From assembly GCA_037379345.1 (NCBI GenBank), contig CM074517.1:48468577-48532576 (forward strand): DNA of 64,000 bases, written 5' to 3'. Numbering within the stretch: position 1 is the first letter of the stretch; each line of letters opens with the position of its first letter. This document shows positions 27,601 through 28,479 of the stretch, piece by piece. Both the position numbers and the translations under genes were made by a program. This DNA comes from Perna viridis. Lineage: Eukaryota. The notes below the pieces were generated by a model that had not been told where the DNA came from, ran no database searches, and worked only from the letters and a program-made list of their open reading frames with translations.

Positions 27601-28479
27601 GAATTTGTCTAGGTCGACTTTTTGTCTTGCAAGACAATAAATGTATGGACACCTATCTCATATATTTAATGCATTTTATTTGTGGATATCAAATAATATT
27701 ATAAGGACAAGTACAATTTATTAGAAATAATTCAAAGTTATTAATAAGGCAAATTTCAACAGAAACAAAAATTTACGAAAATGACAGCCAATGCAGCTTT
27801 AACATTTTAAAAATTCACACATGCATACAAACCATCGCCTTTGTTGCTCTTCGCTTAGTCCACAATTATCCGATAAAAACTCACCAATAGTTTTTTTGTC
27901 TAAATGTCTTTAGGATTAAGCAGTGCACGAGTGTAACGGAGGATCAATTTCTTACCGTTCACCACGAAATGGGTCATCTGATTTACTACATAGCCTATAA
28001 AGATCAACCTGTTCTATTCCGTCGTGGTGGAAATCCTGGTAAACAAACACTGTAATCTACCTCAAGCTCTATACAGTGAAAGACGTTTGTGTCTCCTCTC
28101 TTCAACCGCTTCTGACAGTTATTTCGCTTTGTCTGATTTTTTTTTTAATTCAAAGTTGATTGAAGAAGTCGGCAAATATTTTCTTTCAAATTGATGCGCT
28201 AGAAAGGACTGTCGGCAGCGACCGGATTGGAGTCTAAAGACGAATGTCAAACGCTGTACTGAGCACCATCGTGCCCAATGCATACATGTATATCAGTCAC
28301 CGCACATATTTACTTGACTCTTGCTGCATATTCTGACTCTGTGCATTCAATGGGTCTATCTATTACATAGATCGTTCGGAACACTTTCGTTCAACAATGA
28401 ACCCTTCAGATAAGTAAGTGTAGCAAAAGGCTTCCAAGATTAGTTACCAACTCAATAGATGAATAAGGCTTAATCTCTT

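Follow-up and report, generated by a model that had tools for sequence, protein, structure and literature searches.

A single-domain ACE gene with five copies of the zinc-motif exon

The window analysed here, a stretch of 64,000 nucleotides of the Perna viridis genome (contig CM074517.1, forward strand), contains an ACE (peptidase M2) gene of the single-domain type, encoding one M2 domain with its HExGH motif and a C-terminal membrane anchor. The nearest named proteins are those of Mytilus, with 77-78 of 95-96 residues identical in exon 5. The gene includes a tandem cluster of five homologous 125-nt exons on the plus strand: 7a (27914..28038, with an HEMGH zinc motif and a donor GT at 28039-28040), 7b (28555..28679, identical to 7a at 36 of 41 residues), 7c (29164..29288), 7d (30280..30404) and 7e (31530..31654). 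All five are equal in length and phase, and have the HExGH motif, AG/GT ends and open frames, the sequence features of a mutually exclusive exon cluster. Each of them alone keeps the reading frame of the message, and skipping of all five, like each of the 26 multi-exon combinations, leads to a stop codon. A long U tract (28485..28526) lies ahead of the 7b acceptor, where the nearest branch-point-like A is at 28473. The acceptors of the exon after the cluster (33110-33112) and of exon 5 end in AAG, not CAG or TAG.

Exons 7a and 7b have silent differences at 26 of 35 comparable codons (0.74), more than the codon differences that separate exons 5 and 6 from those of a related mussel-like contig (40 of 78 and 27 of 41, respectively), which indicates that the pair probably arose by an old duplication and that both copies have been under constraint. 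Annotated isoforms of Mytilus californianus, Magallana, Ostrea, Pecten and Mizuhopecten swap the equivalent exon, each annotated isoform having one copy of it except for one entry with two. Protein searches returned no sequence in which exon 7a is matched exactly, and two raw RNA sequencing runs had zero reads on 7a or on the hairpin described below, a count for which no constitutive exon serves as control. The P. viridis gene resembles the single-domain ACE of other bivalves, such as oyster CgACE, in its one M2 domain, membrane anchor and HExGH motif, and differs in having five copies of the active-site exon. The word "exon" is absent from the main text of the CgACE paper (PMC3235092), and no paper describing alternative versions of the ACE active-site exon in molluscs was found in the published literature consulted, which was mostly open-access. 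This set of five intact copies of a 125-nt zinc-motif exon (27914-31654) is probably of greater interest than the hairpin.

A predicted hairpin of transposon origin in the 7a-7b intron

The intron between 7a and 7b was examined for RNA structure, following a preliminary description of four nested helices that start 27 nt past the 7a donor. All of these helices were located where they had been placed, including the start of the stem. Helices 1 and 2 pair 28066..28090 with 28240..28264, helix 3 pairs 28107..28125 with 28202..28220, and an additional short helix (28093-28101 x 28224-28232; pair probability 0.70-0.83) lies between helices 2 and 3. The inner helix 4 (28128..28176), which contains a run of ten U, is also present, and its extent required revision: the arms are 28128-28150 x 28154-28176, four bases longer than first described. 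The predicted hairpin consists of 71 pairs, 59 Watson-Crick and 12 G-U, and 6 of the 12 G-U pairs are in the inner helix, mostly contributed by the ten-U run. Comparison with shuffled sequences on both strands, proposed earlier as a check, showed that the sense strand folds at -66.7 kcal/mol (z -4.24, equalled by 0 of 200 shuffles) and that the antisense strand is at shuffle level (-45.0, z -0.02, equalled by 90 of 200). The helices persist in wider context, with a mean pair probability of 0.74-1.0 in folds of the complete intron and of the intron with both flanking exons. A scan of 1586 segments of 200 nt, with a composition-corrected residual of -5 or less as the cut-off, identified 8 places, 6 of them on both strands and 2 on a single strand, the hairpin being one of these 2. 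Rfam covariance models gave no match at E <= 1 in 26000-33000, and a one-sequence covariance model of the hairpin found nothing convincing in the window, in the one useful metagenome contig considered below or in six paralogue loci. The insertion is present in both of the other DNA sequencing runs that were mapped, one sample having a U run in helix 4 that is shorter by one; these runs show three differences in ~700 nt and no substitution in a helix, a level of variation too low to be informative. Thus, the hairpin of the 7a-7b intron is confirmed as a predicted structure.

The hairpin initially appeared to be unique. BLAST returned only the hairpin itself, reads aligned at 90% likeness gave a flat single-copy depth across 27820-28470, and a pattern made from its own 3' arm again matched nothing else. 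A 25-letter pattern from the 5' arm, however, led to one further locus (a match with 3 mismatches), which fits the hairpin model over an equal length and aligns past the seed (3 of 1000 shuffles equal). The widened 5' arm pattern has 81 matches, with none for the reversed control, and another 3' arm pattern has at least 382 genomic matches, with none for its control. Retrieval of the 81 matched loci yielded 45 in which both ends are visible, and a family majority sequence of 226 nt was derived from 39 copies of 180-260 nt, leaving out one near-duplicate and five of other lengths. Likeness among 30 copies is limited to ~230 nt, so that the ends are sharp and common; the family starts with CAAGCTCC and ends with GGAGCTTG. 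The segment 28063-28267 (plus strand) is a diverged copy of this miniature inverted-repeat DNA transposon (MITE), with 143 of 195 aligned bases identical to the family majority (73%). Its left end is intact, and its right end is complete except for the right-most 3 bases, which are changed. Helices 1 and 2 correspond to the terminal inverted repeats of the MITE (left, 28066..28090; right, 28240..28264) and helix 3 to its sub-terminal inverted repeats, whereas the inner helix is strongly changed from the inner stem of the family. Both strands of the family majority sequence fold (-86.3/-90.2). The hairpin had been presented as a structure selected in the pre-mRNA, a reading that, as stated there, a match to a high-copy palindromic transposable element would refute; such a match exists, to a 226-nt family with 382 and 81 pattern matches, and therefore the symmetry of the hairpin was brought by a transposon and not built for splicing. 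The case is a caution, in that a strand-biased intron hairpin with a z-score of -4, unique by BLAST and by read depth, is nevertheless a transposon.

The flanks of 29 copies with intact termini match at 9 bases (mean identity 0.67, compared with 0.21-0.37 at other duplication lengths from 2 to 12), and in 13 of the 29 copies the flanks match at 8 or 9 of 9 positions. Target duplications of 9 bp point to the Mutator-like superfamily (MULE), a tentative assignment based on duplication length. MULEs in general generate target duplications of 9-11 bp (PMC4334395), and both MULEs and MITEs are reported to be common in bivalves (PMC10294476). Like MITEs of the MULE type, the family is short, non-coding and dispersed, with terminal and sub-terminal inverted repeats and 9-bp duplications; the copy in the 7a-7b intron differs in having no duplication and no right tip, in being far more worn and in folding better than its relatives. 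Its flanks do not match each other, which is read as decay of an old copy, since it is assigned to the family by 73% identity along the whole element. Positions 37-56 of the family majority contain a branch-point-like motif followed by two AGs, possibly by chance; in the copy after 7a this motif and the first AG are altered.

The ACE gene contains a second copy of the MITE, in the same orientation, in an intron further upstream (23025..23231, plus strand). It is less worn, with 173 of 206 bases identical to the family majority (84%), and its fold has been lost (z +1.19, +1.59). The 7a/7b exon pair appears to be older than the MITE insertion in the intron between them, to judge from silent differences at 0.74 of codons as opposed to 27% divergence for the element.

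No counterpart of the hairpin was found in the other three inter-exon introns of the P. viridis cluster. A paralogous ACE domain (L004, G000:C7:17195901-17198408, minus strand) has two HExGH exons separated by ~2.35 kb that contain no similar hairpin. A search for orthologous introns gave two contigs from metagenomes, one of them useful (L002), and none from viral contigs; the MITE is absent from the 666 nt that follow the first HExGH exon of L002, an exon whose orthology is uncertain.

Retention of the fold compared with neutral decay

The copy in the 7a-7b intron has the lowest identity of the 40 copies compared, and its branch (0.51, compared with a median of 0.11) is the longest of 67, with an unsettled bootstrap. 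Its fold of -65 per 200 nt exceeds the -48 +/- 6 predicted from 69 real copies, a family sample that is skewed toward young copies. Two other copies at 73-74% identity, both with partly lost right ends, reach -44.5 and -55.8, and less worn copies show equal stability in 8 of 69 cases when whole copies are compared and in 5 of 58 when the arm pairs are; 1 of these 58 is equally strand-asymmetric. Neutral simulations were as stable on either strand in 2 of 1200 cases; with the outer arms alone and the U run excluded, 9 of 3000 were as stable, and 30 of 3000 starting from a hypothetical, more symmetric ancestor. The gap between sense and antisense strands was matched by 4 of 1200, 45 of 3000 and 76 of 3000 simulations under the three neutral models. 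The resulting tail values of ~0.2-1% overstate the case because the hairpin was chosen for its folding from hundreds of copies. Changed in-register positions are still paired on the sense strand in 11 of 18 cases, compared with 117 of 350 in the family (p 0.015-0.022). No sister subfamily sharing the letters of the hairpin copy was found elsewhere within 3 mismatches, and none of 57 further loci is nearer to it than the family majority is.

The pairs themselves were compared with those of the family. Watson-Crick pairs have changed at 12 of 38 positions, about the rate expected from the wear of the copy, three of these being the outermost pairs. The unusual part is that six positions that are non-pairing or wobble in the family are now Watson-Crick. 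This gain is strand-symmetric and could be of ancestral origin or the result of arm-to-arm repair; three of the seven letters behind the gained pairs are frequent minority letters of the family (24, 11 and 8 of 65). The preliminary description had argued for selection at the level of the pre-mRNA from a predominance of G-U over A-C among the departures from complementarity. The predominance is there, with five G-U, one A-C and two pyrimidine mismatches in register in the three outer helices first described, but its significance is not: the ratio of 5:1 in the outer arms compares with 76:63 in the family (p 0.23), and three G-U pairs within the terminal arms result from simple C-to-T transitions at CpG. 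What speaks for selection is rather that the hairpin is more stable than expected from neutral decay of the family, and also more stable than the second copy in the same gene. The fold is better than wear predicts, and therefore selection is likely to have kept the hairpin folded; the excess of pairing over neutral expectation is modest, and we infer selection of some kind from it as somewhat probable.

Splicing, exclusivity and explanations of the hairpin

The preliminary description also proposed that the hairpin may enforce the mutually exclusive use of the exons, and this part was not borne out. Steric hindrance requires a donor-to-branch distance below ~50-60 nt (PMC7969005, PMC13762713). 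Predicted branch-point-like sites are located 279, 298 and 435 nt from the 7a donor, the two distant ones being followed by many AGs, and removal of the 199 folded bases would reduce these distances to ~80, 100 and 235 nt. Steric hindrance is therefore rejected, the predicted folded distance of 80 nt or more being above the limit. Competing pairing requires a docking site shared by the exons (PMC6071210, PMC4691838, PMC12962786). One long alternative duplex of 24 pairs, between 28223-28248 and a site in the cluster's last intron (32859-32884), has a predicted energy of -27.3 kcal/mol compared with 15.5 lost on opening the hairpin. Equally good duplexes arise in 3 of 60 shuffles and with 3 of 65 unrelated MITE copies, a level of ~5% at which the duplex is not claimed. 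No partners of the 28223-28248 site were found after 7b, 7c or 7d (95, 9 and 66 of 100 shuffles equal), and cluster-wide scans for duplexes and docking sites were at the level of shuffled sequence (6, 3 and 2 shuffles only). Docking-site/selector pairing is thus rejected, no site in these scans being complementary to a selector at every exon beyond chance. The stops in all multi-exon combinations, and the apparently greater age of the exon pair, likewise speak against a role of the hairpin in exclusivity. The hairpin is probably not what makes 7a-7e alternative.

Two other mechanisms were considered and rejected. Masking of a cryptic acceptor is not indicated, as the acceptor-like AG covered by the hairpin at 28118 ranks 120th of 297 by the ACE-family site matrix, in whose training set about three sites were mis-picked. 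Sequestration of exon 7a by self-pairing and by pairing with 28269-28274 is not beyond what synonymous recoding produces (p ~0.07; one of the seven exon pieces behind the codon usage was out of frame).

The explanation that we tentatively prefer, at somewhat less than an even chance, is that the hairpin is an old MITE copy whose fold was kept by weak selection for tolerance of the insertion, not for exclusivity. It draws on the MITE origin and ends, the 9-bp duplications, the predicted fold, the excess over simulations and the stops in multi-exon combinations. The MITE copy lies 24 bases past the 7a donor, having apparently inserted after the 7a/7b duplication, and its inherited inverted arms would form a long predicted hairpin in the ACE pre-mRNA. 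Such a fold would tuck the 205-nt insertion out of the way, so that the 7a donor again comes within ~30 nt of the original intron sequence that formerly adjoined it, and we propose that the fold has been kept because it does so, changes that kept the insertion folded having presumably been favoured. Some other mechanism, with degradation of frameshifted messages as a back-up, would then probably maintain exclusivity. Should the retention of the fold prove genuine, the locus would be unusual in that the family ancestor, a same-gene control and the affected exon are all known, so that the path from an inserted palindrome to a selected RNA structure can be tested directly.

A neutral remnant, with symmetry inherited from the MITE and a good fold owed to luck, to an older and more symmetric parent element or to arm-to-arm DNA repair, and with no effect on splicing, is a possible if doubtful account. 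It takes its strength from the established MITE origin, from the expected rate of pair changes, the insignificant G-U bias and the CpG transitions, and from the choice of the finding by its fold; the window contains six stronger two-strand palindromes, one of them in the 7c-7d intron, and an equivalent hairpin is found neither in the 666 nt of L002 nor between the HExGH exons of the paralogue. It has to accommodate the position of the hairpin in the 0.2-1% tail of three neutral models, including the more symmetric start, the rarity of its sense-antisense gap in the simulations, the loss of the fold in the same-gene control and the absence of a sister subfamily from the loci searched. These last results count toward the tolerance explanation, and they are drawn on also by the idea of an exapted regulator that sets the choice of 7a versus 7b-7e through protein binding or by approximation of an enhancer or silencer, which we consider distinctly unlikely. 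Approximation by intronic pairing has been demonstrated experimentally for serpent exon 4 (PMC4691838), and the hairpin lies 27 nt past a donor that pairs weakly with U1 (-5.3, compared with -9.6 for exon 6); the site matrix, however, gives the 7a donor an unremarkable score (7.9, against 5-12 for the majority of true donors), no conserved partner element is demonstrable, the predicted pairing of 7a falls within the range of recoding, and the other inter-exon introns have no counterpart. The more specific proposal that a single Mutator-type MITE was exapted whole, its arms being repaired and re-paired on the sense strand after insertion, and now sets the use of 7a versus 7b-7e is unlikely; if true, it would allow the origin of a regulatory RNA structure within a cluster of exons to be traced.

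Enforcement of mutual exclusion, by pulling the 7b branch point into steric range or by a selector competing for a docking site, is very improbable. The long alternative duplex with 32859-32884 is in its favour, but that duplex is matched by shuffles and unrelated copies, the predicted folded branch distances are too long, and the hairpin could act on only one of the four junctions. It is equally improbable that the hairpin is a double-stranded substrate for A-to-I editing or a small-RNA precursor with no part in exon choice. A long imperfect duplex within a transcribed intron would suit such a role, and editing may be active in the lineage, to judge from a retroelement piece in the window with A-to-G hypermutation; there is, however, no Rfam match at the threshold given above, the duplex contains no coding sequence, and the apical stem consists of a ten-U arm with a 21-nt one-sided bulge below it, which is unlike a microRNA precursor.

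Structures in the introns of alternative exons are known from several systems. Yue et al. in 2013 reportedly described structure in the intron between adjacent alternative exons of Dscam (exon 17) and OGDH (4a/4b), where steric hindrance is combined with structure; the ACE hairpin is likewise in an intron between neighbouring alternative exons, and differs in a predicted folded donor-to-branch distance of at least 80 nt and in a cluster of five exons, not two. Tandem clusters of same-length exons in Dscam, 14-3-3zeta, Mhc and serpent use competing docking/selector pairing (PMC6071210, PMC4691838). The ACE hairpin shares with these systems an intronic pairing inside a tandem same-length exon cluster, but is local, confined to one intron, loops out no exon and has no shared docking site above chance. 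Splicing is known to be altered by intron stems derived from transposons, as with the inverted pairs of Alu elements that promote exon skipping (PMC13019027); the ACE hairpin is also a transposon-derived intronic stem that may alter splicing, but it is one self-complementary DNA transposon, not two retroposons, and flanks no exon. Within the mostly open-access literature consulted, no description was found of one MITE hairpin located in a cluster of mutually exclusive exons.

Other repeated elements were noted in the window. A high-copy element at 27052-27805, with inverted ends (27055-27111 x 27749-27805), stops ~110 nt before 7a; over the part covered, its contig depth is hundreds to thousands of times that of single-copy sequence. 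The 7c-7d intron contains an AT-rich, near-perfect palindrome (29528-29651) that folds on both strands (z ~ -12/-10) and is likely to be another transposon. A piece of a broken reverse-transcriptase element on the minus strand (8080-8185) has clustered A-to-G differences from another copy, which make up 23 of 29 differences inside this segment and 8 of 30 outside, and looks like edited RNA that was written back into the genome.
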